64,000 nt of DNA from a virus, in the IMG/VR virus record IMGVR_UViG_3300046167_000884, positions 32,001 through 96,000 of that record; one strand, 5' to 3'. The notes beneath the pieces are model-generated. The model saw nothing but the letters and a program-made list of their open reading frames with translations, did not search any database and was not told where the DNA came from. Made by a program: the position numbers and the translations under genes. Of the stretch, positions 3,001 through 46,949 are shown piece after piece (position 1 is the stretch's first letter; every line of letters begins with the position of its first letter).

Positions 3001-4080
3001 GCACACTTCCGGTACATCTGGTATCTTCAGGAATGCCTCAGGTTCTTTCGAGTGTACGAGCGGACTCATCAGTAACTCAGGAACATCAGGTGCAATTCAG
3101 GATTACATCAGGTTCTTCAGGTACTTCAGGTTCTTCAGGTGGTTCGCGGAACTTCGTGGATAAATCTAGCTGGTGCTTCAGGAACATCAGGTTCATCTGG
3201 TACTAGCGGTTCAGCAGGTTCTTCAGGCACAAGTCAGGTTCTTCAGGTACAAGTGGCTCATCAGGTACTTCAGGTTCATCAGGTACTTCAGGTCATCAGG
3301 CTCTTCAGGAACATCAGGTTCAAGCGGTACTTCAGGTACTTCAGGTACATCAGGTACATGCGGTTCATCAGGTTTAGGAACATCAGGTTCTATCGGAACA
3401 TCAGGTTCAGTGGTACATCAGGTACATTCAGGTACAGTGGTTCTTCAGGTACTCAGGAACAAGTGGTTCAAGTGGAACATCAGGTTCATCAGGTACGAGC
3501 GGTTCTTCAGGTACTTCTGGTTCATCTGGTCAAGTGGTTCTTCAGGAACATCGGGTTCATCTGGTACTTCAGGTTCATCAGGTACAAGTGGAACAATGGC
3601 TCATCAGGTACTTCAGGTTCTTCAGGTACTTCAGGTTCATCTGGTTCAAGTGGTACATCTGGTTCATCAGGTACAAGTGGTACATCTGGTTCATCCGGTA
3701 CATCAGGTACATCAGGCTCATCAGGTACAAGCGGTTCTTCAGGCACATCAGGTACAAGCGGTTCTTCAGGTACATCAGGTACTAGTGGTTCAAGTGGAGA
3801 AGATGGATCCTCGGGCTCAAGTGGAACATCAGGTTCAAGTGGTACATCTGGTTCATCAGGTACATCAGGTACATCTGGAACTAGTGGTTCATCTGGTAAT
3901 TCAGGTACAAGCGGTTCTTCAGGGACTAGTGGTTCATCTGGTAATTCTGGAACATCCGGTTCATCAGGTACATCAGGTACATCAGGTTCTTCAGGAACTA
4001 GTGGTTCATCAGGCACATCAGGTTCTTCAGGAACTAGTGGTTCTTCAGGAACAAGTGGTAGTTCAGGTGCATCAGGTCCA
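1..4080 (+). repeat. Gly-X-Y (GTS/GSS/GSA/GID/GND) collagen-like low-complexity coding repeat, begins before the window
   Basis: 9-nt units such as tcaggtaca/tcaggttca/tcaggaact; Gly at every third residue in whichever frame carries the repeat; third codon positions vary synonymously. Confidence 0.95.
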
Positions 4081-6751
4081 ATAGGTCCTTACGAATATTA
4101 TGCTCCCGGAGACGAAGATTCGGGTATTCAACCTGTAAGTGGTTCAAATACTGCTGCAGGTTGTTGGTCAACTATTGCTGGTGGTCAAAATAATTATGTT
4201 GGTCTTGGGGGTACATTATATCATTTTATAGGAGGTGGTTTTGATAACCAAACAGGAACTTGTGCTGCTGGTCAAGTAATTGTTGGTGGATATTGTAACT
4301 GTTCACAAGGTGGTACTTCTCCTAATAAAGCTGATTGGAACTTTATAGGAGCTGGTATTGAAAACTGTAATCTTGGAGGTGCAGCTGCTATTGTAGCTGG
4401 TAAAAATAATAAAATTTCAGGAGTAGGAATAGGTGGAACTAATACAGGTGCATCTGGTAGTTTTATTGGAGCTGGTGTTGGAAATGAAATTGAAGCAGGA
4501 TGTTGTAGTTTTATAGGAGCTGGTTCTAATAACTTTATAACAAGTAGTCATACTTCAATTGTAGGTGGTACCCTAAACACAGCTTCAGCAGATTGTAGTT
4601 TCATAGGAGGTGGACATAACAACCTAACAAAAATATGCACCTATTCAGATTAGTATGGTGGATTTATTTCCGAAGGAACAGGTTCATCAATTGTGGGTGG
4701 TACTTTAAACACTTCCTCCACAGATTATAGCTTTATAGGAGGTGGTAAAAACAATTTTATAAGTGTTTCATCTTGTTATGGTTATTGTCAGGAGGGAGGA
4801 TGCTCTGTTATAGCAGGTGGTCAAAACAATATACTTTCATCATGTCATAGTTTTATAGGAAGTGGGTGTTGTAATTCCATTTCGGACATTTTATGGTCAT
4901 AATTCAATTTTAGGAGGTGGAGGTAATTCTATAAGTGGGGAGTATATTGGACATAGTTCTATATTAGGTGGTTTTAGCAACCTTATTAGAGGATATGGCT
5001 TCATCTACTTCAATTGCAGGTGGTTCCCAAAACACAGGCTCAGGACCACAAAGTTTTATTGGAGCCGGACTTTGTAATTCAATCTCAGGAGGATATGGTA
5101 TTATAGGAGCTGGAAAGTAATAACTCCCTTAGTGGTTATAGACTCAGCTATTGTAGCAGGTTGTAATAACTGTGTTAATGATACTTTTTCGTTTATAGGA
5201 GCTGGTAATTCTAATACTGTTTCAAGTTATTATAGCAATAACATAGTAGGGGGACATCTAAATAAAATAACCGGTTACAATTGTAATGGGTTTATTGGAG
5301 CTGGATGTAAAAACCTAATTGATAGTGTTGATAATTCTTCAATTGTAGGAGGTGTACGTAACACAGCATCAGCAGATTATAGTTTCATAGGAGGTGGTAA
5401 AGAAAACTATATTGTAGGTAGTAACTCTTGCTTTGATGCAATAGTAGGTGGTACTTCTAATAAAATTGCTCATACCATTGGCTAATCCATCTTCTGGTCG
5501 TAGTTTTATAGGTGGTGGATGTTTAAATCAAATCTTATCAAATACATCTCTAGGCTTTATAGGAGGTGGTACATCTAATACTATAAGTTCTGGTTATACA
5601 GGTCTTAGTTTTATTGGGAAGTGGAGATACAAATACAATTTCGGGTGCTTATGCTTCTAGAAATTTTATAGGAACAGGACGCCTTAATGATATTTGTACT
5701 GAGTATGATACAAATATAATATTAAACGGTAAAGAAAACACTATAAGTGGATATTCAGGTTTTAATACAATCGTAAATGGATCAGGATCAGTAATACATG
5801 ATGGAAATTGGAACTTTATAGGAGCAGGGGTATGTAACAGCGCAACACCTGGAGATTATACCCCTGATGATGCTTTTGGTGCAACTATTGTAAATGGGGT
5901 TTGTAATACAGGATCTGGACAATACTCTTTTATAGGAAGTGGAAAACAGAATCATGCTGCTAGTGATTATTCTATAATTGTAGGAGGTATTCTAAATACA
6001 GCTTCTGCAGTATGTAGCTTTATAGGATTATTAGGAGGTGGATGTAATAATAGTATTACCGGGGCCTTAGCGCAACTAAGCACCAGATCCAATGACGTAA
6101 TAGTTGGTGGGTCCAATAATAAAATATGCGGTGCCTGTAATACAAATTCCAATTCAATATTAGGGCGGAACTTTTAATACAATATGTCCTGTTTACTCTT
6201 CAGGAAATACAATCGCTGGCGGATCTTCAAATATTATATCTGGTGGTTTCCGTTCATTCAGTTTTATTGGTAATGGATATCAAAACGTAATTTCAAATGG
6301 TTCTTGTAATGGAATATTAGGAGGTAATAACAATACATTAACTCATTCTTGTTCATTTATAGTAGGTTCTAACTTAACCTCAACAGCTGTTTGTTATACC
6401 TTTATGAACAATGCTTGTGTAGCAGGTACAACTCGTACTACAACATTAGTAGAAACATCAGCTAGAAGATTTAAACAATGTATCTTACCTTTACAGGATC
6501 AAATCGAAAATATTAAAAAACTCGAACCTGTAGAATTCCAATGGAAAAAAGATAAAACAAAAGACATTGGGTTTATAGCCGAAGATGTAAAAGAAATTTA
6601 TCCCGATCTTGTAGCATACGAAGAAGATGGAAAAATAAGTGGTGTACAATACTCAAAATTAACAACAGTTCTTGTAAAAGCTTTACAACAACAACAACAA
6701 CAAATTGAAGAGTTGAAAAAAGAAATATTTATATTAAAACAAAATAAATAA
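1..6751 (+). CDS. Giant tail fibre/filament protein (5'-truncated, many frameshifts): collagen-like shaft, SFIGGGxxN beta-helix-type repeats, C-terminal Peptidase S74 intramolecular chaperone
   Basis: ORF pieces 20-2908, 3139-4653, 4693-4902, 5132-5485, 5614-6177 and 6404-6751 carry continuous motifs; the last piece has SARRFK..I..L, FQWK, GFIAEDV..IYPDLV, YSKLTTVLVKALQ and a coiled coil, typical of S74 chaperones. Confidence 0.8.
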
Positions 6752-19490: not shown

Positions 19491-19500
19491 ATATTTATAA
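19491..19500 (+). promoter_or_regulatory. Putative late promoter ATATTTATAA
   Basis: Recurrent intergenic motif. Confidence 0.7.
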
Positions 19501-19514
19501 TAAAATACCTAACC

Positions 19515-20615
19515 ATGAAAGATAATTTTGACCTTTATTCTTGGAATAAAAATCGTTATTTAGAAAAAGAACATAAATCTAAGGATACTAAAGAAAAAGA
19601 TTTTGATTTACGTGAATGGAATAAGAAAAGATATTTAGGTGAACTAGATATTAATACTGCAGGAGGTGAAACTAATGTAGATAATATAGATGTAACCCAT
19701 GGTGGAGATGATCCTAAAATTGGTGCAGAATTAGAATCAGATGCCAATGTAGTAGGAGAAAATAAAGATTATTTAGAAAGCCTTGCCTTAAACCTCACAC
19801 AAGCACACCCAGATTTAGAATTTGAAGTTAGTAACTTTGATGATGTAAGAGTTTATGGTTCTCAAAGTGATTTAATGAAGTTTGGAAATAAAATGCATGG
19901 TAAAAAATTTGGAGAATATGAAGTATTTCATGTAGAAGATGATGATAGAGGAGAAATTGTTCGAATAGTTAAATCAGATAGCATTTTAAGAAATTTTGAA
20001 AATTTAAATGAAGCAAGTTATATGTACAAAGGATATAAAGATAAACACTTTGATATTTGCCCAGGAGCTGAAGCATTAAGAGATAGATTATTAGCTGGTG
20101 AATTTAAAGATAATAATTGGGCTACAGGAACTAATTTTGAAAAAGAAGTAGGTGAATGGCTTTACCAACATGACGTAATATTTGGTATTGAAAAAAATAT
20201 TATAAAAGATAAAGAAGGTGATGAAAATGATATAGCTAAAGCTAAAGAAGCTGAAGGTAGAGTTGTTAACTTATCTCGTGATTTAGGTATTCCGGCTTCT
20301 GAAATAAATGCTTATCTTCCTGCTCATATTAAAACCATTAAAGATATGGTTGAGTATAGTTCATTAACTGAAAGCATTAAAGAAACACTTCGTTTTATTA
20401 AAGAACACAATCCAGATTTTACTAACGAAGAAATTAAATCTGAATTAAAAGAACTTAAAGAATTAGGCAAGCAATTAAACGAAAAACTTTGTAAAAAAGG
20501 CGAAGCATATCGTAAACGTAGAATGGCTGCAGGTGAAAAATCATCAGCTTATTTATCTGGTCGTGCTGTTAAAGTATGTAAAGGTCAAATGAGTGGTAAA
20601 AAAAAGAAAAAATAA
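19515..20615 (+). CDS. Probable internal head protein with duplicated FDL leader and basic C-terminal module
   Basis: DNFDLYSWNKNRYLE / DFDLREWNKKRYLGE; several LxE sites; LCKKGEAYRKRR..VKVCKG tail. Confidence 0.6.
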   Translation: MKDNFDLYSWNKNRYLEKEHKSKDTKEKDFDLREWNKKRYLGELDINTAGGETNVDNIDVTHGGDDPKIGAELESDANVVGENKDYLESLALNLTQAHPDLEFEVSNFDDVRVYGSQSDLMKFGNKMHGKKFGEYEVFHVEDDDRGEIVRIVKSDSILRNFENLNEASYMYKGYKDKHFDICPGAEALRDRLLAGEFKDNNWATGTNFEKEVGEWLYQHDVIFGIEKNIIKDKEGDENDIAKAKEAEGRVVNLSRDLGIPASEINAYLPAHIKTIKDMVEYSSLTESIKETLRFIKEHNPDFTNEEIKSELKELKELGKQLNEKLCKKGEAYRKRRMAAGEKSSAYLSGRAVKVCKGQMSGKKKKK

Positions 20616-21310
20616 TGGGTACATTTGATTTAAAAAAATATATTTCTGATAATCCTTTGCTAAAGGAAGAAATTTTAACTGAAGTAAGTGATGCTGATAT
20701 TGTTAAAGCTTTAGCTAAAGTAGTAGACATGGAACCTAAAGATGTTGTAGCTAAAATAAAGGCAGATAAAGAGGAAGTAAATGAAATAGCAATTACAACC
20801 GCTATCACTATTGCAGGTCTTCTTCCAGCGGTTATGGAATTAGTAGGTGGTGCTTTTAATAAAGCTAAAAATTCTTTTAAATTAAATGATAAAGAAAAAA
20901 CAGAATATTTAGCATTACAACAATTCTACAAGGAAGCAAAAGATAAAGATGAAAAGAAAAGACTTAAAAAAGAAATGGAACCCTATGAATCTAAAATAGG
21001 AAACTGGTTTAAAGATGCAGGGCATTCTTTACACAAAGCTTATACTTGGCCTATTAGAAAAATGTTAAACTTGGCTGGAACCTTTTCTTCTAAAGATTCT
21101 CCTTTAAAGGATAAAGAAAAAGTAGAAAAAATAGCTAATGTTATTTATGCTACGGCAATGATAGGGATAGCAGGGTATGGAGTTGCTTCTCACCTAGGAC
21201 ATTTAAAAGGCGTATCAGATGTAGCTATTACTATTGCAGATTCTATTAAAGGAGGTAAAAGTATAAAAGATGCTGCCTTAGGTGGTTTAGAATTACTTGG
21301 TTTATTATAA
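20615..21310 (+). CDS. Probable internal head protein with hydrophobic segments
   Basis: Leader MGTFDLKKYISDNPLLKEEILTE; two hydrophobic Gly/Ala-rich stretches. Confidence 0.55.
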   Translation: MGTFDLKKYISDNPLLKEEILTEVSDADIVKALAKVVDMEPKDVVAKIKADKEEVNEIAITTAITIAGLLPAVMELVGGAFNKAKNSFKLNDKEKTEYLALQQFYKEAKDKDEKKRLKKEMEPYESKIGNWFKDAGHSLHKAYTWPIRKMLNLAGTFSSKDSPLKDKEKVEKIANVIYATAMIGIAGYGVASHLGHLKGVSDVAITIADSIKGGKSIKDAALGGLELLGLL

Positions 21311-27735: not shown

Positions 27736-27744
27736 TATTTATAA
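27735..27744 (+). promoter_or_regulatory. Putative late promoter ATATTTATAA (last one upstream of the cassette array)
   Basis: Recurrent intergenic motif. Confidence 0.7.
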
Positions 27745-27753
27745 TAAAACAAT

Positions 27754-28938
27754 ATGTGTAACTGCGGATGTAATACTTGCGAAACTAAAACAAAAGGACC
27801 TTTACTTACTGAAAGTAAAGTTAAATCTTTATTATCCGAAGGTCTACAATATCACATAGATAAAAAAATACCATTATTTGAAACAGTATATCGTATTGGT
27901 TCAGATAAACATCTAGCCTTAATTAAAGAAGCTAGAAAAATGTATTCACGTAACATAATTGATTTATGTGAAGATGATGAAGCACTAATTAAAACACATT
28001 TAGGTGAATTTGCTTTATATGAAGGTGAATCTGTACCATTAGATTTACCTATGTTAAATGAATCAGATTCTAACTATCCAGATTTTGATTTAAATAAAAA
28101 CATAAGATACAAAGATACATCTATTTCAAGCGGAATGTGGAGATATACAGGTCAAGAACAAGGTGGAAAAGGCGTTTATAGAAATTTAAATAATGATCAA
28201 ATATTAGCTTTTGATAGAAGTGATTTTGATATATTTAAAAACAATCTTGGTAGTCATTTTGATATTTCAGAATCATTAAATGAATTTTCATTACCTAAAT
28301 TTGATGTAGTAAAACCTATTATTGATAAATTTTTAGGTGGGATAGAAAAAGCTGGTAAAAAACTATTACAAATAGTTAAACGAGAAGGTAAACAGACTTT
28401 AGTATTAATTAAAGAAATAGCCGAATACGTAGTAAGTGGAGAAAAACCAACATCATCTGAACAGAAAAAAATTACAGAACAATTAAAGGATTTAGGTTTT
28501 TTAGCTTTTTTAGGAATAGCAGGTAATATTCCTTTTTCATTATTTTCTATAATTTATTTTATAATAGATGAATCAGGCATAGCTAAAGAATTTTTAAAAT
28601 TAAATGAGTCATTAAATGAAGATGAACAATTAGACGAAAAGAAAAAGGCTAAGAAAAAAGAAAAAAAAGACCCACCATTAAATAAACCAAAACGTGGTGG
28701 TTCTAAAGCATATTATGTTTATGTACGTGATCCTAAAACTAAAAAAATTAAAAAAGTATCATTTGGATCCGGTGGTTTAAGAGCTAAAATTAAAAACAAA
28801 GAAGCTCGTACTGCATTTGCCGCTAGACATAATTGTAAAAATAAAAAAGATAGAACTAAAGCAGGATATTGGTCATGTAATTTACCAAGATACGCTCCAG
28901 CATTAGGATTAGGTGCTAAAATGAATACTTTTTGGTAG
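27754..28938 (+). CDS. Modular internal head protein with Cys leader and basic C-terminal domain
   Basis: MCNCGCNTC; LTES/MLNES/SLNE/KLNESLNE sites; KPKRGGSKAYYVYV..FAARHNC..AGYWSC. Confidence 0.6.
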   Translation: MCNCGCNTCETKTKGPLLTESKVKSLLSEGLQYHIDKKIPLFETVYRIGSDKHLALIKEARKMYSRNIIDLCEDDEALIKTHLGEFALYEGESVPLDLPMLNESDSNYPDFDLNKNIRYKDTSISSGMWRYTGQEQGGKGVYRNLNNDQILAFDRSDFDIFKNNLGSHFDISESLNEFSLPKFDVVKPIIDKFLGGIEKAGKKLLQIVKREGKQTLVLIKEIAEYVVSGEKPTSSEQKKITEQLKDLGFLAFLGIAGNIPFSLFSIIYFIIDESGIAKEFLKLNESLNEDEQLDEKKKAKKKEKKDPPLNKPKRGGSKAYYVYVRDPKTKKIKKVSFGSGGLRAKIKNKEARTAFAARHNCKNKKDRTKAGYWSCNLPRYAPALGLGAKMNTFW

Positions 28939-29212: not shown

Positions 29213-29720
29213 TTTACCTATTTCAGGATTACCAGCTTCATCTACATTACAAGGAGATGAATTATTTGCCGATGTACAAGGTGGTGTAACTAAATATACT
29301 ACTTTAGATGATGTAACAAGCTATGTAAGTGGCTCAATTGAAGTCTATAATCAAACTAACCCTAATAACTCATATATAGTTCCCGTAACTTTAACAGTTG
29401 AAAAAGGAGATACAATTAATTTATCAGATACTGTATATCAAAATGCTTCTATGATTGAATTATCATGGAGTGGAGAGACTAACCCAGATGTAACTCTAAA
29501 TCTTCCAGATGCAACAAATGCTAATAATACTTATAGAACAATAAGATTTATTTCTGATTCAACCTTTATCAATTCTAGTCATCATGTTGATTTAACTCCA
29601 ACAGGAGGTCAAACATTAGATGGAAGTACAAACCCTTATGTAATAAATAAAGCATATGAAGGTATTATGGTATGGTCAGATGGAGCAGAATGGTTTATAA
29701 TACAGAAAAAAGCTGGATAA
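29205..29720 (+). CDS. Probable virion structural protein
   Basis: MPNLPISGLP..LQGDELF..VQGGVTKYTTL N-terminus and DGAEWFII C-terminus resemble phage fibre/baseplate modules. Confidence 0.55.
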   Translation: MPNLPISGLPASSTLQGDELFADVQGGVTKYTTLDDVTSYVSGSIEVYNQTNPNNSYIVPVTLTVEKGDTINLSDTVYQNASMIELSWSGETNPDVTLNLPDATNANNTYRTIRFISDSTFINSSHHVDLTPTGGQTLDGSTNPYVINKAYEGIMVWSDGAEWFIIQKKAG

Positions 29721-29968
29721 TGAACCCATACAAAAATAAAGGTAACATAAGAACGTTTTCGAAAGATGTAAATAAACTAGAACTAGTTTGGCATCAAGAC
29801 GCTGAAGATAGAGATATCGAAGTATTAGAAGGCAAAGGATGGGAATTACAAATGGATAATGAATTACCCTTTGAATTAGTAAAGGGAGATCGTATATTTA
29901 TAACAGAAGGTAGAATACACCGAATATTAAAAGGCATAACAGATTTAAAAATAAAAATAAATGGATAA
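29720..29968 (+). CDS. Small cupin-like protein
   Basis: LVWHQDAEDR..VLEGKGWELQMD..IFI..IHRILKG; likely start MNPYK at 29720. Confidence 0.7.
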   Translation: MNPYKNKGNIRTFSKDVNKLELVWHQDAEDRDIEVLEGKGWELQMDNELPFELVKGDRIFITEGRIHRILKGITDLKIKING

Positions 29969-30254
29969 CTTTAATTTAAGAAAATATTTAGCTGAAGGAA
30001 AATTACATGAAGAACAAGTAATGGGATATGCTGTACTTATAAATGGTAAATTCTATAATAATAAAGTATACAAATCAGAATCAGTAGCTAATGGACAGTT
30101 AACTACATTACTAGGTGATGTAAAAAGTGAATTAGGTCTTGAAGGTGGAAGAAAAGATCAATATTATTTTGGTACTAAAAAAGGAGATAAAGATTTAGAA
30201 CAACGTTTAAAAGATTTAGAACAAGCTAAAGTAGTAGCTGTAACCTATAAATAA
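29961..30254 (+). CDS. Leader-cassette protein 1 (putative capsid-targeted internal protein)
   Basis: MDNFNLRKYLAEGKLHEE leader + unique payload. Confidence 0.8.
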   Translation: MDNFNLRKYLAEGKLHEEQVMGYAVLINGKFYNNKVYKSESVANGQLTTLLGDVKSELGLEGGRKDQYYFGTKKGDKDLEQRLKDLEQAKVVAVTYK

Positions 30255-30260
30255 AAATAA

Positions 30261-30902
30261 ATGGATAACTTCGATTTAAAAAAATATTTAGCTGAAGGTC
30301 GCTTATTTAAAGAAGAAATAGACTACCCATCTATTAAAGATGAAATGAAAAAAATATATGATATAGATGTAGATCTAGATACCATTAAAGATTTTGTTAC
30401 ATCATATAATGATAGTGAGGGTATGGATGTATTTGATACAACGGAACGAGAAGATTTTTATTTATATTTAAAAGATTTAGCTGAAGGCCTCTTATTTGAA
30501 GAAGAACAATGGTTTGATCCCTCTAGCCCTTCACACGGTAAAGGATATAAAGTATTAGGCGATAAACCACAAGAAGGTGCTTTTTATGTAAGTGGATATG
30601 ATTTTGATAATGATAAAAGCTTTGAATATTATGTACTTGATCCTAATTATAATAAATACCTTACTGCTACCCAAGAATTATTAGGTCTTGCTGATGAACA
30701 GGGACACGAGTATGAAAGTATAGAACAGTATTATGATACAGTTAAAGCTTTTCAAAATGATTTAAGATCTTATGCTAAAGGAGGTAAGTTCGAAGGTGAT
30801 GAGGTACCTAATTGGCTTATGCAAGATCTTGCTATGAGTTTTGGAACTGATTATGACCAATTTTATAGTGATGATGAAGACGAAGACGAAGACGATTATT
30901 AA
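30261..30902 (+). CDS. Leader-cassette protein 2 (acidic)
   Basis: MDNFDLKKYLAEGRLFKEE; internal LAEGLLFEEE; acidic tail. Confidence 0.8.
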   Translation: MDNFDLKKYLAEGRLFKEEIDYPSIKDEMKKIYDIDVDLDTIKDFVTSYNDSEGMDVFDTTEREDFYLYLKDLAEGLLFEEEQWFDPSSPSHGKGYKVLGDKPQEGAFYVSGYDFDNDKSFEYYVLDPNYNKYLTATQELLGLADEQGHEYESIEQYYDTVKAFQNDLRSYAKGGKFEGDEVPNWLMQDLAMSFGTDYDQFYSDDEDEDEDDY

Positions 30903-30920
30903 AAATAAAATTAAAATAAA

Positions 30921-31472
30921 ATGGATAATTTCGATTTAAAAAAATATTTAGCTGAAGGAAGACTATTTGAAGAAGATTTTAAAAATCCAATTCTAGATAA
31001 ATATTTAGAACTAAAAAAATCAGTAGATAACAATACAGCTTTTGAGTATGAACTATCAGATTTTATTAATGGTTTAGATAATACTGAACGTGAGGGATTA
31101 GAAAGCGATTTAGGATTAGAAAGAGATGAGTTATATGAAGGTCGCTTATTAAAAGAAGAGATAATGGTTGACACCACTATTATGTTTGGTGGTAATGACT
31201 ATATTAAAGATGTACTTACATCACCTGATGATTTTGGCTTTGATGAAGAAGATGCTGAATGGATTAAAAGTAATATTTTAACTGCTCCTAAAATGGTATC
31301 TATTGAAGATTACATGGCTTTAGAGGATAAGTGGGTAGAACAAGCAGATTTAGATGTTGGAACAGGAGCAGATCGTGAGTCTGTTCTAGATGCTATTGAT
31401 GTTCATATTAAACAAGGATTAATAACTCCTGAAGAAGGAGAAGAAGCTAAAAAAATAGCACTAAAATTTTAA
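30921..31472 (+). CDS. Leader-cassette protein 3 (acidic)
   Basis: MDNFDLKKYLAEGRLFEED; internal YEGRLLKEE. Confidence 0.8.
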   Translation: MDNFDLKKYLAEGRLFEEDFKNPILDKYLELKKSVDNNTAFEYELSDFINGLDNTEREGLESDLGLERDELYEGRLLKEEIMVDTTIMFGGNDYIKDVLTSPDDFGFDEEDAEWIKSNILTAPKMVSIEDYMALEDKWVEQADLDVGTGADRESVLDAIDVHIKQGLITPEEGEEAKKIALKF

Positions 31473-31477
31473 AATAA

Positions 31478-31789
31478 ATGGATAACTTTGATCTAAAAAA
31501 ATATTTAGCTGAAGGTAAATTATATGAACAAAAATCTCCTAAATTTAAAATAGGTGATTTTGTTCAACCTAAAAGCCGAGATAAATATGTAGGCCAAATT
31601 GAAGATGTTTATATTAATAAACCTGAAAATTTAGAAATAAAAGATGGTGAATATGTTTATTCAGTTGATAAATTAAATCACAGAGGAAAAGATGCAATGT
31701 CATTTGATTTTAAAGAATCAGATTTAGAATCAATATCTGACCCAACTGAATATATAAAAAGTTTAACACCATATAAAAGAAGAAACTAA
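31478..31789 (+). CDS. Leader-cassette protein 4 (KOW/SH3-like payload)
   Basis: MDNFDLKKYLAEGKLYEQ; FKIGDFVQ..YVGQIEDV. Confidence 0.8.
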   Translation: MDNFDLKKYLAEGKLYEQKSPKFKIGDFVQPKSRDKYVGQIEDVYINKPENLEIKDGEYVYSVDKLNHRGKDAMSFDFKESDLESISDPTEYIKSLTPYKRRN

Positions 31790-31790
31790 A

Positions 31791-32372
31791 ATGGATAATT
31801 TCGATTTAAAAAAATATTTAGCGGAAGGCCGCTTATTAAAAGAAGAATTAACTTTTTCTTTTGACGAATATAGCTATGAAATTGATGATGATGCCTATCA
31901 AGCAGAAGTAGAGGCAGGTATTAAAACTCAATTACCAAACATCTCAGATAAAGTTTTACAAGCAATCATAGATAGTTCTGTAGAATACTATTATGATCAA
32001 AGAGAAGAAGATGTACCTTCTAGTGATATCGTAGATATGGCAGTTGATTATTATAATGATGAAATGACTGGAGGCAGTAAACCATCTGCTCCAAGTCAAA
32101 AATATGATTTATCTAGTGTTGATTTAAGTGGATTAGATAAAGGCCAAAAAGAAGCTTTTGATAAATTTGTAGATATTTACCTTAAACCTTATGGTGATAC
32201 TGATGCACAAGAAGATTTAGAACGCTACGTTAGACAATTTGGAAAAGTAGAAAATGCATACGATCTTGATTCTCTAATCCCAAACTCATTTCAGTACGAC
32301 AGGGAGGAAAGGGAAGCTATGCAACTTCAATTGAGAAGAGCTTATTTAGATGATGATCAACCTATAAACTAA
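31791..32372 (+). CDS. Leader-cassette protein 5 (acidic)
   Basis: MDNFDLKKYLAEGRLLKEE. Confidence 0.8.
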   Translation: MDNFDLKKYLAEGRLLKEELTFSFDEYSYEIDDDAYQAEVEAGIKTQLPNISDKVLQAIIDSSVEYYYDQREEDVPSSDIVDMAVDYYNDEMTGGSKPSAPSQKYDLSSVDLSGLDKGQKEAFDKFVDIYLKPYGDTDAQEDLERYVRQFGKVENAYDLDSLIPNSFQYDREEREAMQLQLRRAYLDDDQPIN

Positions 32373-32378
32373 TATATT

Positions 32379-32444
32379 ATGAAATGTAATTGTAAAGTAT
32401 GTAATTGCGGAACATCATGTGGATGTGATTGCTGTAATTGTTAA
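32379..32444 (+). CDS. 21-aa Cys-rich metallothionein-like peptide
   Basis: Translated by hand: MKCNCKVCNCGTSCGCDCCNC*, 9 Cys; fits exactly between cassettes 5 and 6. Confidence 0.7.
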   Translation: MKCNCKVCNCGTSCGCDCCNC

Positions 32445-32457
32445 AATATAAAATAAA

Positions 32458-32979
32458 ATGGACAATTTTGATTTAAAAAAATATTTAGCTGAAGGTAGGC
32501 TATTAAAAGAAAATATAGATATGGCTACAATACTTAGCCATGATGATTATAAAGAACTTTATATAGGAAATAGAGCTGAACATGATGCTTCTCCTGAAGA
32601 AGAACAATTCAGTGATGAATATATAATTGACCTTAAACCAGGAATGTACCACATGATATTTTGGAATGATGAAGGTCCTGATTATAATGTTTATAATAGC
32701 AAAGAAGAATATATAAAAGATTCTATTGTAAGTTTTTGGGACATCGAACACTTTGAAAGAAAATTTGGACTTACAGATGAATTAGATGCAGCTGGAGATA
32801 ATTGGGAAAGTGTTTTTAATAAACATATAGAAGATAATTTAGATATGTATTATGAAGAACTAAATAGACTTATTAACAATTCAGAAGCTGATGGTGATTC
32901 AGCTAATGGGGTTGTTCTTTTACAAAATGGTAAAGTAGTAGCTGGTGAAGCAACTAATATAAGCAGAAGATTTGATTAA
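32458..32979 (+). CDS. Leader-cassette protein 6 (acidic)
   Basis: MDNFDLKKYLAEGRLLKEN. Confidence 0.8.
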   Translation: MDNFDLKKYLAEGRLLKENIDMATILSHDDYKELYIGNRAEHDASPEEEQFSDEYIIDLKPGMYHMIFWNDEGPDYNVYNSKEEYIKDSIVSFWDIEHFERKFGLTDELDAAGDNWESVFNKHIEDNLDMYYEELNRLINNSEADGDSANGVVLLQNGKVVAGEATNISRRFD

Positions 32980-32985
32980 ACTAAA

Positions 32986-33021
32986 ATGGATAATTTTGAT
33001 TTTAAAAAACATATAGGATAG
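32986..33021 (+). pseudogene. Empty/degenerate leader cassette MDNFDFKKHIG*
   Basis: aaaatggataattttgattttaaaaaacatataggatag matches the array leader and stops after 11 codons. Confidence 0.7.
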
Positions 33022-33059
33022 ATTCATAGCCTATCCGATTAGAAATAATTAAAGAGATC

Positions 33060-33086
33060 TGTGGCCTCCATTTGGAGGTCACATTT
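33060..33086 (+). terminator. Hairpin closing the cassette array
   Basis: gtggcctcc-attt-ggaggtcac stem (one G-U pair); short T tract. Confidence 0.6.
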
Positions 33087-33124: not shown

Positions 33125-33280
33125 ATGGATATAGATAAAGAATTTTATTTAGTAAGAAAAAATGAAGGTAATTCATTTCAAAGATTAATGATGTTTTTTT
33201 TAGAACAAAACAAAAAACATGGTGCAGATTTCGGAGTAGCAGGAATGTATAATACTTTAAATAGATTTTATGGTGAGTAA
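33125..33280 (+). CDS. Small hypothetical protein (51 aa)
   Basis: MDIDKEFYLVRKNEGNSFQRLMMFF... downstream of a host-type promoter; overlaps the next start. Confidence 0.5.
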   Translation: MDIDKEFYLVRKNEGNSFQRLMMFFLEQNKKHGADFGVAGMYNTLNRFYGE

Positions 33281-34577
33281 AAACGTAGTAATGATTGGAG
33301 CAGGTGTAGCAAATGTAAATGCTGCTACCAAGCTAGTTGACAATGGGTTTAAAGGTAAAATCACTATTATTGATATGGGTAAAGACCCATATTTAAGACC
33401 TTATGAAGAGGTAATGACAGGTTTCCTAGGAGCAGGAGGTTGGTCTGATGGTAAATTAACTTATCATACTTCAATTGGAGGGCAATTATCTAAATATTGT
33501 GGTGAAGAAAAAGCAATGGAATTATTTGATCAGGTGATAGATAATTTTAAACGATTCCATCCTAAACCAGAAGAGGTACAATGCTCAAATCCAGTTGCAG
33601 AACCAGATTTTATTAAACCATATTTCGGTTTACGTTTATTCCCTGTATGGCACGTTGGTACAGATTATTTACATGAGATTGGTAAAAATTGGTATGATTT
33701 CTTAGTTGATAATGGTGTAGAATTTATTTGGGAAACTAAAGTATATGCTATTGATTTTGTAAATGAAAGGGTATTAGGTAAATCATTAATTAAAGATTTA
33801 GAATATGAACGTAGGTATGATAAACTCATATTTGGTGTAGGTAAATCAGGTATTGATTTTGGTAAACAATTAGCAGAGGAATATGATCTGCCAACTGAAT
33901 CTAAACCAGTACAAATAGGTGTTAGATTTGAAGCACCACAAAAACACTTTCAAAAATTAATTGATGTAAGCTATGATTTCAAATTATATAGAAAATATGA
34001 AGACAAAGGCGTATCACTACGTTCATTCTGTACAAATAATAATGCAGCTTATGTTGCCGTTGAGGAAACATATGGAGATCACAGTTACAATGGACACGCT
34101 AAAAAAGATGAAGCATTCCGAAATGATATGACCAATTTTGGTATATTAATGGAAGTACAAGGTATTGATAAACCATTTGATTGGTCAAGAGAAGTAGTTA
34201 AAAACTTACAAATAGATGGTACAGGATTATATTATAGCCCAACACGTAAACCCTCTACAACATCTGAAGGTGTAAATGTATCAGCTATTCAAGTAGATAC
34301 ATTACATAAAATAGCAAAATCAATGCAACCATACTTTATGTATGTATATGATTTTATTGAGGACATGAAAAAAGTGTTTCCAACATTAAAAGACGATTGG
34401 GGTATTTATGTACCTGAAGTAAAATATCTATCACCTGAGCCACTTGTCGATTATACCAATTTAGCACTCACCAAGTATCCTAACGTACACTTCGTAGGCG
34501 ATGCTTTATCAGCTAGAGGTATAACGGTAAGTGGTGCACAAGGGACATATGTTGCTGAATCACTTTTGGAGAACTAA
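33270..34577 (+). CDS. FAD-dependent oxidoreductase (COG2509-like uncharacterised dehydrogenase)
   Basis: MIGAGVA Rossmann motif, GAGGWSDGKL, IGVRFE, RSFCTN, FVGDA..RGI..SGAQG. Confidence 0.85.
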   Translation: MVSKNVVMIGAGVANVNAATKLVDNGFKGKITIIDMGKDPYLRPYEEVMTGFLGAGGWSDGKLTYHTSIGGQLSKYCGEEKAMELFDQVIDNFKRFHPKPEEVQCSNPVAEPDFIKPYFGLRLFPVWHVGTDYLHEIGKNWYDFLVDNGVEFIWETKVYAIDFVNERVLGKSLIKDLEYERRYDKLIFGVGKSGIDFGKQLAEEYDLPTESKPVQIGVRFEAPQKHFQKLIDVSYDFKLYRKYEDKGVSLRSFCTNNNAAYVAVEETYGDHSYNGHAKKDEAFRNDMTNFGILMEVQGIDKPFDWSREVVKNLQIDGTGLYYSPTRKPSTTSEGVNVSAIQVDTLHKIAKSMQPYFMYVYDFIEDMKKVFPTLKDDWGIYVPEVKYLSPEPLVDYTNLALTKYPNVHFVGDALSARGITVSGAQGTYVAESLLEN

Positions 34578-35438: not shown

Positions 35439-36122
35439 ATGAAAAAATCTGAATTAAAAAATTATATTAGAGAAAATATTATCTCTACATTATCTGAAGA
35501 TACTGAGGCAGAAATTGAAAAAACTAAAGAATTAACTTCAGCAATTAAAGATCTTGAAGCTGCTAAAAAAGAAGCTGGTATAGAAGAAGATGCAACCCCT
35601 AAAGGTGAAGATTTTTTTTATGATTATTTAGATATTGGTATGTCTTATTTAGAAGGATTTGGTAAAAAACATTCTTTAGATGACAGTCAGTTAGAAAAAC
35701 TAGGTAAAAAAATAGTAGATCAATTATATAAAGGTGATGTTGGTAAAGCATATGATGCTATTGTTAAAAGGGGCTCAATGAAAGAAGCATCATACTCTAA
35801 TCAATATGTAAATAAAAATAGGATTGCAAGTAATAAGTATAAACAAGCTAATACTTACAAAAAATCATATGATAGTCTTGCCCAAGTGGCATCAGAAAAA
35901 CAATTTGATGATGATAACATAGATAAAAAAGCTGTTAAAGGGGCTAAAAAAAATAAAGGTTTAGCTAAAGCAGCTGAAGAATTAGCTTTATTAACTCGTG
36001 ATATGAAATCATTGGCTAAAAAGTATTCCAAAGCTGAAGGTGAAGAAAAAGAAAAACTAGTAGCTGATCTTAAGAAAAAAACAAAACTTAAGAAAGAATT
36101 AGAAGCTATTATAGACAAATAA
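35439..36122 (+). CDS. Probable internal head protein
   Basis: MKKSELKNYIRENIISTLSE leader; late motif upstream. Confidence 0.55.
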   Translation: MKKSELKNYIRENIISTLSEDTEAEIEKTKELTSAIKDLEAAKKEAGIEEDATPKGEDFFYDYLDIGMSYLEGFGKKHSLDDSQLEKLGKKIVDQLYKGDVGKAYDAIVKRGSMKEASYSNQYVNKNRIASNKYKQANTYKKSYDSLAQVASEKQFDDDNIDKKAVKGAKKNKGLAKAAEELALLTRDMKSLAKKYSKAEGEEKEKLVADLKKKTKLKKELEAIIDK

Positions 36123-40353: not shown

Positions 40354-41217
40354 ATGAAGATAAAACATTCAAAGTACAAAAACACAGGCATATTATTTGA
40401 ACTGTTAGTACGACAAATTACCGCTGATACACTTAAAGGTGGTAGTTCACCCGCTATAGATATATTAAAAGAATATTTTGTTAATACTTCTTTAGGCAAA
40501 GAATACAAATTGTATGAATCTGTACTTAAATCTAAGGTAATAACTGAAGGTAGAGCTACATTAGTTATTGATACTATATTAGAGGCATCTACTAAATTTA
40601 ATAGAAAATCTTTAAAAAAGCAAAAATATAATTTAATTAATGAAATTAAAAAACATTATAATTTAGAATCTTTTTTTGGTTCTAAAATTACAAATTATAA
40701 AGAATTAGCTGCTTTATATACTTTAATAGAAAATGTTAATTCTAACTCAATTTCTAACCCAACCCAATTAGTAGATAATAAAGTAACTTTATTAGAACAT
40801 TTAACAAAAAAAGAGGTATCAACAAACTCCAAAGAATCAGTACTTAAAGAATTTTCTACATATGATAAAGATGTAAGAACTTTAACTTACAAAGTATTAT
40901 TAGAAAAATTTAATGATAAGTATGATACTTTAACTAATGATCAAAAACAAGTCCTTAAAGAATATATCAATTCTGTAGATTCAACTCCAGATTTAAGAAA
41001 TTTTTATAATGTTAAAATTATTGAGTTAAAATCAATTTTAAATAAAGAATCTAAAAATATAAAAGATAAAGCAACTCAAATCAAAATTACTGAAGTAGCT
41101 AAATTTTTAACTGAATTAAAAAAGACTGATAAAGTTGGAGACAACAATTTAGTTGATTTGTTACGTTATTATCAATTAATAAGCGAAATTCAAATAGCAA
41201 ATGGCGTTCAAGTATAA
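40354..41217 (+). CDS. Head-morphogenesis-region protein
   Basis: KIKHSKYKNTGILFELLVRQIT; lies between portal and protease; late motif upstream. Confidence 0.65.
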   Translation: MKIKHSKYKNTGILFELLVRQITADTLKGGSSPAIDILKEYFVNTSLGKEYKLYESVLKSKVITEGRATLVIDTILEASTKFNRKSLKKQKYNLINEIKKHYNLESFFGSKITNYKELAALYTLIENVNSNSISNPTQLVDNKVTLLEHLTKKEVSTNSKESVLKEFSTYDKDVRTLTYKVLLEKFNDKYDTLTNDQKQVLKEYINSVDSTPDLRNFYNVKIIELKSILNKESKNIKDKATQIKITEVAKFLTELKKTDKVGDNNLVDLLRYYQLISEIQIANGVQV

Positions 41218-43337: not shown

Positions 43338-43946
43338 ATGGGTAAAACACTCTTAATAGAAACTAATACCTTTAAATTATCATCACCTTTATTAACTGAA
43401 AATGTTAATAAGGATAATGGTAATGTTTTAGTTGAGGGTATTTTAGCTACAGCTGAAGTAAAAAATGGTAATGGTCGTTACTATTCAAAAGAATTATGGC
43501 AACGCGAAATGGATAAATATAATGAGCTTATTGAACAAAGACGCTCAATGGGAGAATTAGACCACCCAGAATCCACTGTTGTAAATTTAAAAAATGTTTC
43601 TCATATTATAAATGAATACTGGTGGGATGGAGACCAAGTAATGGGTAAAATTGAAATATTACCTACCCCATCGGGTAACATACTTAAAGAACTTATTAAA
43701 AATGGGTGTACTGTAGGAGTATCATCTAGAGGTATGGGTTCATTAGAACAAAGGGGTGAAATAATGGAAGTACAAGATGACTTTGAATTATTATGTTGGG
43801 ATTTTGTTTCAACTCCTTCAAACCCTGGTTCTTATATGCATGAAATTCTTAAAGAAGGTAAAGAAAATTACACTTACGATTATACAAATGTTAATAAATT
43901 AATACATGAAATTCTTTGTTCAAAAGGATCATGTCCTATAACTTAA
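43338..43946 (+). CDS. gp21: Prohead protease (T4 gp21-like)
   Basis: KNGNGRYY, GELDHP, NVSH, GVSSRGMGS, WDFVSTPS. Confidence 0.95.
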   Translation: MGKTLLIETNTFKLSSPLLTENVNKDNGNVLVEGILATAEVKNGNGRYYSKELWQREMDKYNELIEQRRSMGELDHPESTVVNLKNVSHIINEYWWDGDQVMGKIEILPTPSGNILKELIKNGCTVGVSSRGMGSLEQRGEIMEVQDDFELLCWDFVSTPSNPGSYMHEILKEGKENYTYDYTNVNKLIHEILCSKGSCPIT

Positions 43947-44124: not shown

Positions 44125-45282
44125 ATGGCAAACAATGATTTGTTAAAAGAAGCAATTGCCGATGCTAAAGCTGTTAAAGAAACTGCTATTGCAAACGCAA
44201 AACTTGCTCTTGAAGAAGCATTCACACCACATTTGAAATCTATGCTTTCAGCAAAATTAGAAGAAATGGACAAAGAAGACGTTGACGAAGGATACGACGA
44301 AGACGTTAAAGAAGAAATGGATTCTAAAGATGACATGAAAGAAGGAGAAGATGAAGTGTATGAAGAAAAAGAAGAGCTTGATGAAATTGACCTTGACGAA
44401 CTACTTGCTGAACTTGAATTGGATGAAGACAAACGTACAGATGCTGAACAAGAAGGCTATAAGGACGGATTCGAAGACGCTAAAGACGACATCGAAAAAG
44501 AACTTAAATCTATGAAAGTATCAGAAGCAAAAGACGAAGATGAAAAAGTTGACGAAGCTAAAAAAGGCGACGACAAGGATGACATTAAGGAAGATGCTAG
44601 AACTGATGCTGAAGAAGAAGGCTACCTTGACGGTATGAAAGACGAAAAAGAAGACGAAGAAGACAAAATCGACGATGAAGAAATTGATCTAGAAGATATG
44701 TCAGAAGACGACTTAAAAGGATTCATTGAGGATGTTATTAAAGATTTAGTAACAGACGGAACAATTGAAGCTGGCGAAGATTTTGAAGAGGAAGATGTTG
44801 AAGACGAAGTTGAAGTTGAAGACGATGTAGAAGTTGATGTAGAAATCGACGAAGCAGTTGACGGCGAAAAAGGTGTTGGAAACGAAGATGGAGACAAAGA
44901 TGACTCCAAAGTTGAGAAAGAAACTGAAAAAATGAGATTTAAAGAAGCCTTAGATGAAATCGAAGCTCTTAAAGTTGAATTACAAGAAGTTAATTTACTT
45001 AATGCTAAGTTACTTTACACAAACAAAGTATTCAAATCTAAAAACTTAACTGAAGACAAAAAAGTTAGAGTGCTTAAAGCATTTGATAAAGCGTCAACAG
45101 TAAAAGAAGCTAAAGTTATTTTTGATACATTAAACGAAGGTTTAGTGTCTAAAACAGCTGCTCCTGCAAGACCAAAAGGTAGTGCATCTAAAGCAACTGG
45201 TGCAATAACTGAAGCTAAAAAACCTATTATTGAAAGCAATGATGTATACAACCGTATGCGTAAACTTGCTGGATTAATTTAA
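44125..45282 (+). CDS. gp22: Prohead scaffold/core protein (T4 gp22-like)
   Basis: Acidic; LLKEAIADAKAVKETA..; C-terminal LQEVNLLNAKLLY..RMRKLAGL; sits between protease and MCP. Confidence 0.88.
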   Translation: MANNDLLKEAIADAKAVKETAIANAKLALEEAFTPHLKSMLSAKLEEMDKEDVDEGYDEDVKEEMDSKDDMKEGEDEVYEEKEELDEIDLDELLAELELDEDKRTDAEQEGYKDGFEDAKDDIEKELKSMKVSEAKDEDEKVDEAKKGDDKDDIKEDARTDAEEEGYLDGMKDEKEDEEDKIDDEEIDLEDMSEDDLKGFIEDVIKDLVTDGTIEAGEDFEEEDVEDEVEVEDDVEVDVEIDEAVDGEKGVGNEDGDKDDSKVEKETEKMRFKEALDEIEALKVELQEVNLLNAKLLYTNKVFKSKNLTEDKKVRVLKAFDKASTVKEAKVIFDTLNEGLVSKTAAPARPKGSASKATGAITEAKKPIIESNDVYNRMRKLAGLI

Positions 45283-45317: not shown

Positions 45318-46949
45318 ATGAGCTTAAATACTCTTTTAGAAAGTGCGAACCCATATCACTCAATGCAGAGTGACGCAGCCAAATTGGCATCAAAATGGGA
45401 AAAAACAGGTTTACTAGAAGGCCTTCAAGGAGCAAATAAATCCAACATGGGTATTATTCTTGAAAACCAAGCTAAACAACTTGTAGTAGAAGAATCTAAC
45501 ACTGGCGGTGGTGCTGGAGCTGGTCAATTTCAGGCTGGTACTGGTGCACAATGGGCTGGAGTAGCTTTACCATTGGTAAGAAAAGTATTTGGTCAGATTG
45601 CAGCGAAAGAATTCGTTAGCGTTCAGCCAATGAACTTACCTTCTGGTCTTGTATTCTACCTAGATTTCCAATATGGAACAGGAAAAACCCCATTTACAGC
45701 AACTGAATCTCTATATGGAGATGCAGGAACTGACCCTTCAACTTCTCCTTTCGGGAACACTAATTCAGGTGGCCTTTATGGACAAGGAAGATATGGATAT
45801 TCTATTAACACAACAGCATCTGCTGTAGCTACAGTAACAACTGCTTCAGCTGATAGATCTGATGTTAATTTTAATTCATTATTCACAGCTTCTTTAGCTG
45901 CTGGAGATATTAAAGTATGTCCAATTCCACTTGCTTCTCTTGATGCAAATTACGACCCAGAAGCAATTAGAAGTTTCTACTTAGAAGGTGCAAATGCTCC
46001 TACAGTAGCACAACAATACCCACAATTTACTAAAATTGTAGGTACAGATCTTCAGTTAATAGTAGATGCAGATTCATTTGATCCTGCTGCTGCAACTTCA
46101 ATTTCTTATTCACTAAAAACATTAGATTATGAAAGAGGTGATTTTGAAGATGGAAATAATAACCTAAATGGTAATAACTCTCCAATTTCAATTCCTGAAA
46201 TTAACGTACAGATGCAATCATCTGCTATTGTAGCTAAAACTCGTAAGTTAAAAGCTGTATGGACTCCTGAGTTCGCACAAGACTTGAATGCTTACCACGC
46301 TTTAGATGCTGAAGCAGAATTGACTTCTATCTTAAGTGAGTACATTTCATTAGAAATTGACATGGAAATCTTAGACATGCTACAAGAATCTGCTGCTGCA
46401 GGTACTGAAGTATGGTCAGCTGTAAACAACCAAGCTATTGTAGATAATGGTACTAATGGTACATTCTCAGATCTAGGATTTTACAACAGCCAAGGACAAT
46501 GGTTCCAAACACTTGGAACTAAAATCCAAAAATTAAGTAACGCTATCCACCAGAAAACTCTACGTGGTGGTGCTAACTTTATGGTAATTTCTCCAACAAT
46601 TGGTACTATCTTGGAATCAATTCCTGGATACGCTGCTGATGCTGATGGAGACGTGTCTAAATCTACTTATGCCTTTGGTGTACAAAAAGTAGGTGCATTT
46701 AACGGAAGAATGAAAGTATACAAAAATCCTTACCAAACTGAAAACCAAATCCTATTAGGGTTTAGAGGTGCTCAGTTCTTGGAAACAGGTGCTGTATTTG
46801 CTCCATACATTCCATTAATCATGACTCCACTTATCTACGATCCATCTACCTTCACACCACGTAAAGGATTGATGACTCGTTACGCTAAGAAAATGGTACG
46901 TCCTGAATTCTACGGATTGATTAAAGTATCTGGTTTAGAGACTCTATAG
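45318..46949 (+). CDS. gp23: Major capsid protein (T4 gp23-like)
   Basis: KWEKTGLLEG, ILLENQ, VSVQPMNLPSGL.FYLDF, AKTRKLKAVWTPEFAQDL, APYIPL, FTPRKG.MTRYA. Confidence 0.97.
   Translation: MSLNTLLESANPYHSMQSDAAKLASKWEKTGLLEGLQGANKSNMGIILENQAKQLVVEESNTGGGAGAGQFQAGTGAQWAGVALPLVRKVFGQIAAKEFVSVQPMNLPSGLVFYLDFQYGTGKTPFTATESLYGDAGTDPSTSPFGNTNSGGLYGQGRYGYSINTTASAVATVTTASADRSDVNFNSLFTASLAAGDIKVCPIPLASLDANYDPEAIRSFYLEGANAPTVAQQYPQFTKIVGTDLQLIVDADSFDPAAATSISYSLKTLDYERGDFEDGNNNLNGNNSPISIPEINVQMQSSAIVAKTRKLKAVWTPEFAQDLNAYHALDAEAELTSILSEYISLEIDMEILDMLQESAAAGTEVWSAVNNQAIVDNGTNGTFSDLGFYNSQGQWFQTLGTKIQKLSNAIHQKTLRGGANFMVISPTIGTILESIPGYAADADGDVSKSTYAFGVQKVGAFNGRMKVYKNPYQTENQILLGFRGAQFLETGAVFAPYIPLIMTPLIYDPSTFTPRKGLMTRYAKKMVRPEFYGLIKVSGLETL

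Follow-up and report, generated by a model that had tools for sequence, protein, structure and literature searches.

A stretch of 64,000 nucleotides from a virus (IMG/VR record IMGVR_UViG_3300046167_000884, bases 32001-96000 of one contig of 120,008 bp with 31.8% GC; this whole stretch is called the window below) carries six tandem genes on the + strand whose products begin with the same leader of 18 residues (MDNFDLKKYLAE, then G[KR]L-x-E) and continue into unrelated bodies. We consider it likely, with a probability of about 0.7, that this peptide is a capsid-targeting and processing leader of the T4 type, and that the proteins behind it are hypervariable, mostly acidic cargo of the phage head. 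The internal proteins of bacteriophage T4 are the textbook case of proteins that are injected with phage DNA and, to our knowledge, only a handful of internal proteins have a known function, all of them from coliphages. In the genomes described here the T4 principle seems to be at work at a much larger scale, and in an abundant uncultured marine clade (151 tagged open reading frames (ORFs) in 58 clusters from 85 loci), so that the tagged ORFs, none of which has a known domain, form a list of candidate host-takeover or anti-defence proteins.

Under the mechanism that we propose, the array would probably be transcribed late, together with the structural genes, and the leader would carry each product into the core of the assembling prohead. 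A gp21-type S77 protease would there cut behind Glu12, behind the second L-x-E and, in fused cassettes, at the internal copies of the leader. The cuts would release compact, mostly acidic bodies which, being purged of the motif that the protease recognizes, would come through maturation intact, remain in the head and be delivered with the DNA. As every cassette starts with the same ~55 nt, recombination in the leader would swap, fuse, split and delete cassettes, and so maintain a hypervariable cargo island at a fixed site.

Leader, bodies and protease motif

The six genes were recognized by ORF listing and repeat finding and occupy 29961-32979 (Table 1). Each begins MDNF[DN]L[KR]KYLAEG[KR]L and reaches a second hydrophobic-x-E by residue 18, which is F-K-E in cassette 2 and [LI]-x-E in the other five. 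The six genes together with a truncated seventh, the ORF of which reads MDNFDFKKHIG*, give the common form MDNFDLKKYLAEG[KR]L-x-(x)-E. With a profile hidden Markov model (HMM) of the leader, the six array genes score 44-48 bits (E ~1e-13) and the runner-up in the 120-kb genome scores 13 bits. Among codons 1-15 of the six copies, eight vary synonymously (GAT/GAC, AAT/AAC, TTT/TTC, TTA/CTA, GCT/GCG, GGA/GGT/GGC, CGC/AGA/AGG) and three have conservative replacements (D/N, K/R), and because the codons vary in this way it is the peptide that is kept, not merely the DNA. The second site holds L and E while x varies, which is what a cleavage motif predicts: [LIVF]-x-E recurs at residues 14-21 in 92 of the 98 unique leaders, where x is unconstrained and may be K, F, Y, N, H or S. 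Two further copies of the leader lie inside genes, DLAEGLLFEEE in gene 2 and ELYEGRLLKEE in gene 3. A secretion signal was ruled out as the role of the leader, which is charged rather than hydrophobic.

A sequence-only reading of the same DNA had described six genes that share a near-identical leader, a synonymous divergence of the repeats that implied selection on the peptide, and unrelated bodies behind it. All three descriptions held, the first by the ORFs and the HMM scores, the second by the ratio of eight synonymous to three conservative codons, and the third by BLASTP, which gave no match between any two of the six bodies at E<=1e-3. The same reading called the payloads mostly acidic, and this applies to four of the six (isoelectric point (pI) 4.05-4.23), the exceptions being the basic cassette 1 and the neutral cassette 4.

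The head module of the phage is of the T4 type. Some 4 kb downstream from the array come, in this order, terminase, the gp20 portal (Pfam PF07230, Portal_T4, 5.7e-67), the S77 protease, a very acidic scaffold and the gp23 capsid protein, with the tail sheath further on, and by its portal, S77 protease and gp23 genes the contig is assigned to the T4-like myoviruses. By its capsid protein, Flavobacterium phage vB_FspM_immuto (56% identity; immuto below) is the closest cultured phage and Rhodothermus phage RM378 the next. A Bacteroidota host is plausible because these two are the nearest capsid relatives, and the phage, a marine one, probably infects Flavobacteria. The protease begins MGKTLLIET, of which L[IV]ET recurs in 9 of 10 relatives and has the counterpart QLLIETW in T4 gp21; this match suggests that the specificity of the enzyme is conserved. 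The contig, which lacks a terminal repeat, may be incomplete; related contigs reach ~166-173 kb at the longest seen, and immuto has 160 kb. On these sizes the designation as a jumbo phage, also made in the sequence-only reading, was rejected as unsupported.

The T4 gp21 protease cuts after Glu in [LI]-x-E (PMC9026906, PMC5694885), and Asp at the cleavage position blocks processing in T4 (PMC9026906). Counts of the motif were compared with per-protein shuffles, of which 2000 were made for the six window payloads. When the internal leader copies are left out, these six payloads have no [LI]xE where 11.0±2.9 are expected, a count as low as this occurring in 0 of 2000 shuffles, and they have 26 [LI]xD where 14.0 are expected, a gain of L-x-D that fits the block by Asp known from T4. 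Past their N-terminal leaders the proteins hold only four [LI]xE, all of them in the two internal leader copies. The loss is specific to this motif, in that ExL, LE and [ASG]xE are not depleted in the six payloads. Across the metagenomic payloads the 56 cluster representatives, one per cluster, contain 60 [LI]xE (expected 96.9±8.5) and 155 [LI]xD (expected 107.5). The 39 other acidic ORFs of the genome have 122 [LI]xE for 104.6 expected.

The proteins enriched in L-x-E are ones that the protease would be expected to degrade. The scaffold has 15 [LI]xE (expected 8.9) and the protease itself 9 (expected 3.6), and the same is true of T4 gp22, with 16 for 5.8 expected. Two genes of no known family, at 27754 (17 observed, 4.9 expected) and at 40354 (15 observed, 4.3 expected), are on these counts candidates for prohead core proteins that the protease degrades. 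In each of T4 ipI, ipII and ipIII the only [LI]xE is the one that closes the N-terminal propeptide, so that the bodies have none. From nothing but sequence, a depletion test of this kind infers whether proteins are exposed to the head protease, and it could be used on other phages.

The bodies of the six cassettes are 79-195 residues long and have no credible counterpart in the collections that were searched. Neither Pfam nor PHROGs gave a credible family for the six cassettes, for four leader proteins of immuto or for six long metagenomic payloads; the region had no blastn match in 50,697 phage records, tblastn of cassette 2 was likewise without a match, and the ESM Atlas had no usable match to the cassette-6 payload. 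The HMM and structure searches of each payload that the sequence-only reading had proposed were carried out as HMM searches on all six and as models of cassettes 5 and 6, and they returned no family or fold match. Cassette 5 was modelled as two helical domains (predicted local distance difference test (pLDDT) 75.7). Foldseek found nothing for it in the PDB or BFVD at E<=0.001, and in a wide structural comparison its best hits were small helical bundles at Z 6.9, which is within the background for helical models. The model of cassette 6 is alpha/beta (pLDDT 90.1, predicted template modelling score 0.82), with residues 1-20 at pLDDT ~60 and the fold beginning at about residue 21. Foldseek found nothing for this model, and among 48,161 chains (PDB representatives) the best match had Z 2.8, with 12 chains at Z>=2; the modelled body may be a new fold. 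In both models the leader has low confidence and is placed outside the fold. The payload family of cassette 2 has a C-terminus of Asp/Glu runs closed by Tyr (DDEDEDEDDY; EEEYEDY in L055:250-666), which recalls the acidic C-terminal tails that occur in single-strand-binding proteins.

Cassette turnover among relatives

The exact leader peptide MDNFDLKKYLAEG was sought in IMG/VR by a degenerate DNA pattern and was found in 85 loci, which contain 151 leader ORFs. By BLAST, 154 payloads, the six of the window included, fall into 58 clusters, 29 of them singletons. The leader is a trait of one T4-like clade, because 79 of the 85 loci share further genes with the window genome and because the leader peptide matches, among the 50,697 phage records, genomes of immuto only. 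In immuto the leader takes the variant form MENFDLKKFLVENKLT.NS.[IL]LKE on gp003, gp076 (directly before terminase), gp077 and gp092, and gp069, which lies between protease and scaffold, has a shorter and more diverged leader-like start (MENNFDIHKW...). As this cultured phage carries a variant leader, the idea can be tested at the bench. No proteome of the clade was found, and the papers located on immuto report no virion proteomics.

The site of the array is fixed, and most of the leader loci are at this same place, about 4 kb before the terminase. It lies upstream of terminase and portal, between a gene of 98 residues (38 loci) and a gene of 435 residues that resembles a flavin adenine dinucleotide (FAD)-binding fold (44 loci). 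In the 30 loci that have both flanks the gap between them measures 125-2894 bp and holds 0-4 leader genes, and loci in which the left-flank protein is 95-98% identical to that of the window have quite different cassettes there; flanks that are 96-97% identical thus enclose different contents. A homologue of cassette 5 is first in the array of one locus (L021) and third in that of another (L031). The sequence-only reading had called for a comparison of the locus in related genomes and had taken identical content and order of payloads, with a shared fold over the whole proteins, as evidence against its proposal; what we find is turnover, with cassettes that differ in number, content and position next to a nearly unchanged flank. 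Leader genes of the relatives are also found in the head, replication and tail regions.

That reading had also suggested that the leader doubles as a recombination point, and the joints do lie exactly in leader copies. DNA homology between the window and its relatives extends across the left flank, ends inside the first leader (~30000-30020) and resumes at ~33003, inside the truncated seventh; at the site of this remnant the relatives have AAAAAACATATAGGATAG, without the ATGGATAATTTTGATTT part. Within cassettes the same is seen at the level of modules. Module A of cassette 3 (~55 residues) carries four different bodies, in the window and in L001, L044 and L038, and the switch falls at ELYEG[KR]L in the first three and at the variant DLAEGSLLKE in L038. 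Behind module A in L001 sits the body of cassette 4. The payload of cassette 2 stands alone behind the leader in L054/L055, and the first module of the same cassette is fused to the payload of cassette 6 in P0124. A complete internal leader that retains its Met precedes the cassette-6 body in P0099, and an internal leader with Thr in place of Met does so in P0108; elsewhere the body follows other variants of the leader or has none, and its joint is always directly after [LI][LI]-K-E. Cassette 5 consists of two sub-modules that have recombined at leader-like linkers. Fused and split forms thus interchange freely at the leader, as would be expected if the peptide is excised afterwards.

Competing explanations and known systems

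The proteins could be loaded into the head and trimmed there and nevertheless act inside it, as core or filler, as modulators of charge or pressure, or as helpers of DNA ejection. A leader gene directly between protease and scaffold in two loci (L028 and L041), payloads as acidic as the scaffold, and the lack of resemblance of any payload to a known anti-defence protein would all suit such a role. We regard it as unlikely, since a content as hypervariable and dispensable as this one (0-4 cassettes, 58 clusters) fits the cargo of an arms race better, and since L-x-E is enriched rather than depleted in the scaffold-type proteins of this phage. Less likely still is a leader that serves as a tag for some other partner, unrelated to the capsid, such as a chaperone, a host protein or a modifying enzyme of the kind that recognizes the leaders of ribosomally synthesized and post-translationally modified peptides (RiPPs). 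RiPP precursor arrays, for example those of the prochlorosins, combine a conserved leader with a hypervariable core in genes that stand in tandem, and the present array resembles them in its tandem genes, conserved leader and variable remainder, and a Cys-rich micro-ORF of 21 residues and the FAD-fold gene stand beside it. The bodies, however, are folded domains of 80-250 residues and not short cores; those of the window have 79-195 residues and no maturase family was found among their neighbours, so that the array does not classify as a RiPP precursor array. The FAD-fold gene is present in 9 of 9 loci that have no cassette at the site, leader genes occur also in the head, replication and tail regions, and a tag of this sort would leave both the loss of [LI]xE with gain of L-x-D and the interchange of fused and split forms at the leader unexplained.

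The explanation to which we give least credence, and which we hold to be very improbable, is that the conserved 5' stretch acts as nucleic acid, either as a translation-initiation region or as a gene-converted recombination site, the peptide being incidental. Conservation does reach back ~12 nt from the ATG, where there is an A-rich tract, and the recombination joints lie inside the leader. Against this, synonymous sites are free while the peptide is held (TTT/TTC stand at 53:53 and six K/R codons occur at position 14, though the search pattern biases these codon statistics), the peptide motif is retained in internal copies that have no start codon, and the immuto variant has the same peptide pattern in different DNA.

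Several observations weigh against a capsid-targeting leader on packaged cargo. The payloads have a median pI of 4.3, whereas the internal proteins of T4 are basic, and an acidic protein fits poorly beside packed DNA. Some members of the cassette-6 family have no leader, and so bodies can exist untagged. The scaffold begins MANNDLLKEAIADAK, which resembles the leader, and is missed by the leader HMM; this likeness was accordingly dropped as support. The depletion in the metagenomic payloads is partial, at a ratio of ~0.6, and its significance is inflated by kinship, although it still holds with the 56 cluster representatives. The bodies of the T4 internal proteins have 0 [LI]xE where 2.8 are expected, a difference that is weak by itself. 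The assignment of the late promoter, described below, depends on a motif and nothing more.

The principle of a T4-type leader is already known from T4, where IPI, IPII, IPIII and Alt bear a capsid-targeting sequence (CTS) that the gp21 protease cuts off (Mullaney & Black 1996, reviewed in PMC9026906 and PMC3012670) and where diverse internal proteins have only the CTS in common (PMC3012670, PMC9026906). Both systems have a short N-terminal propeptide that ends in [LI]-x-E on otherwise unrelated proteins, a leader end of the form [FY]-[IL]-A-E, bodies without the cleavage motif, and phage genes for a protease of the S77/gp21 type, for a gp22-like scaffold and for a gp23 capsid protein. When the T4 CTS, MKTYQEFIAE, is set against the leader, agreement in type is confined to the final four residues (FIAE and YLAE), which is too short for statistics. 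The leader here is otherwise unlike the CTS, is 18 residues long and has two tandem sites; six genes stand in one tandem array where T4 has three that are dispersed; the payloads are mostly acidic where those of T4 are basic; and the cassettes are often multi-module fusions with internal leader copies. The array thus departs from what is known in its different, longer leader with a double site, its tandem arrangement, its mostly acidic bodies, its frequent multi-module fusions and its joints in the coding leader. With a T4-like head module and this leader end, the independent targeting code that the sequence-only reading had inferred finds no particular support; a diverged T4 system and an independent invention of the leader seem to us equally likely.

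T-even phages are known to have polymorphic loci for internal proteins, of which more than 30 variants have been reported (Repoila et al. 1994; Comeau et al. 2007 for the variants; both as cited in PMC2839356 and PMC9026906). These loci resemble the array in that a variable set of leader-bearing genes occupies fixed loci between conserved genes and differs in close relatives. Exchange in the T-even phages is tied to flanking promoter and stem-loop-like elements (PMC2839356), whereas the joints here lie inside the coding leader. The PeSL-type cassette pattern, in which a promoter and a stem-loop flank each ORF, is not found in the array, where the intergenic gaps are 1-18 nt save for one of 85 nt that contains the Cys-rich micro-ORF. 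The giant phages phiKZ, 201phi2-1 and SPN3US likewise have head-internal proteins with N-terminal propeptides, multiple cleavage sites and an S77-like protease (PMC5694885), and diverged paralogues among them have identical N-termini (PMC5694885). Their propeptides are mostly longer than 100 residues and have the motif [ASG]-x-E (PMC5694885), and theirs are families of paralogues where the array here combines unrelated cassettes.

A more far-reaching version of the cargo proposal, which is possible and which we advance only tentatively, would be a combinatorial system of dozens of ORFan modules, at least one of them with a fold that lacks a solved neighbour. Each module would have a double protease site at its border and would be fused, split and exchanged freely through recombination in the leader. 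All would be packed into the head and injected, as an acidic set of proteins that counters host defence and possibly mimics nucleic acids. A role of the payloads as DNA mimics or in anti-defence is a guess from their charge and hypervariability. If the combinatorial version is true, motif depletion would serve, wherever a phage has an S77 protease, as a general marker of packaged cargo that can be read in the genes themselves. The leader might in addition be usable as a tool for loading cargo into phages of Bacteroidota.

Coordinates, expression signals and minor features

Table 1. Positions in the window of the array, its flanks, the head genes and other features named in the text (empty cells, no entry)
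Feature	Position	Strand	Remarks
GC-rich block	1..4653		47% GC in a genome of 32% GC
Lone leader-like gene outside the array	20615..21310	+	start MGTFDLKKYISDNPLLKEE; leader HMM 13.4 bits, E 0.0034
Late-promoter-like motif	27736..27743	+	core TATTTATA inside ATATTTATAATAAAA; 11 nt before the 27754 gene
27754 gene	27754..28938		no known family; L-x-E-enriched
Conserved left-flank gene	29672..29968	+	98 aa; 3' end overlaps start of cassette 1; homologues adjoin leader genes in 38/85 loci
Second late-promoter-like motif	29895..29902	+	ATATTTATAAC; inside left-flank gene, 59 nt before cassette 1
Cassette 1	29961..30254	+	97 aa; leader and 79-aa basic payload, pI 9.1
Cassette 2	30261..30902	+	213 aa; leader, ~55-aa first module, internal leader copy, acidic payload ending DDEDEDEDDY
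Internal leader copy in gene 2	30470..30506		
Cassette 3	30921..31472	+	183 aa; leader, module A, internal leader copy, payload
Internal leader copy in gene 3	31124..31160		
Cassette 4	31478..31789	+	103 aa; leader and 85-aa payload, pI 6.8
Cassette 5	31791..32372	+	193 aa; leader and acidic payload, modelled as two helical domains
Micro-ORF	32379..32444	+	21 aa, nine Cys, no leader; MKCNCKVCNCGTSCGCDCCNC; between cassettes 5 and 6
Cassette 6	32458..32979	+	173 aa; leader and acidic payload domain, modelled as alpha/beta
Truncated seventh leader	32986..33021	+	fused to conserved right flank
First right-flank hairpin	33016..33036		GGATAG...CTATCC
Second right-flank hairpin, intrinsic-terminator-like	33060..33083	+	10 pairs, 6 GC, T-rich tail; would close the operon
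Conserved right-flank gene	33270..34577	+	435 aa; FAD/NAD (nicotinamide adenine dinucleotide)-binding fold-like; homologues in 44/85 loci; weak Pyr_redox_2 match; phrog_12409
MKKS[EQ]L-type gene	35439..36122		just before terminase
40354 gene	40354..41217		no known family; L-x-E-enriched
gp21-type prohead protease	43338..43946	+	PF03420, Peptidase_S77, 4.5e-29; N-terminus MGKTLLIE
Acidic scaffold, gp22-like by position	44125..45282	+	between protease and capsid protein; L-x-E-enriched
gp23-type major capsid protein	45318..46949	+	PF07068, 1.2e-75; 56% identical to immuto capsid protein

Portal, neck, tube and many other structural genes are preceded, at a distance of 11-24 nt from their starts, by the motif ATATTTATAA[T/C]AAAA, which is probably the late promoter of the clade. 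Copies in the window include those at 19492, 22345, 27736, 35415, 38374, 40329, 47888, 48452, 49115, 62143 and 63765. The T4 late promoter TATAAATA was dropped as such; it is its reverse, TATTTATA, within ATATTTATAA, that precedes structural genes. The copy at 27736 is the probable start of an operon that runs into the array. The copy before cassette 1 is kept in place in 32 of 38 loci, even where the protein in which it lies is only 40-45% identical. Between cassettes there is no + strand hairpin or terminator, and the sole + strand terminator follows the array. These signals point to late co-expression of the array with the head genes. Both right-flank hairpins are conserved in related loci, and the first has changes that look compensatory.

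The lone leader-like gene at 20615 was compared with immuto gp003, and their similarity is confined to the leader-like start. A second recurrent N-terminus, MKKS[EQ]L..[IL]I[KR]E, which has I-x-E at its end as well, is found on one gene of the window and on five of immuto (at 102294, 102880, 111675, 113188 and 123355 of its record, L089); it may represent a second class of leader.

No tRNA genes were found in the window, and Rfam gave nothing over its whole length. The GC-rich block at its start encodes collagen-like (Gly-X-Y) tail-fibre proteins and has many spurious overlapping ORFs. Ribosomal RNA was ruled out as the source of the GC-rich first 5 kb, this being the collagen-like tail-fibre region, without an Rfam match. 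Ends of Cys-rich ORFs that resemble the micro-ORF adjoin the right flank in seven loci (L004, L019, L026, L038, L064, L067 and L081), and the 27754 gene is also Cys-rich at its start, which reads MCNCGCNTCE.

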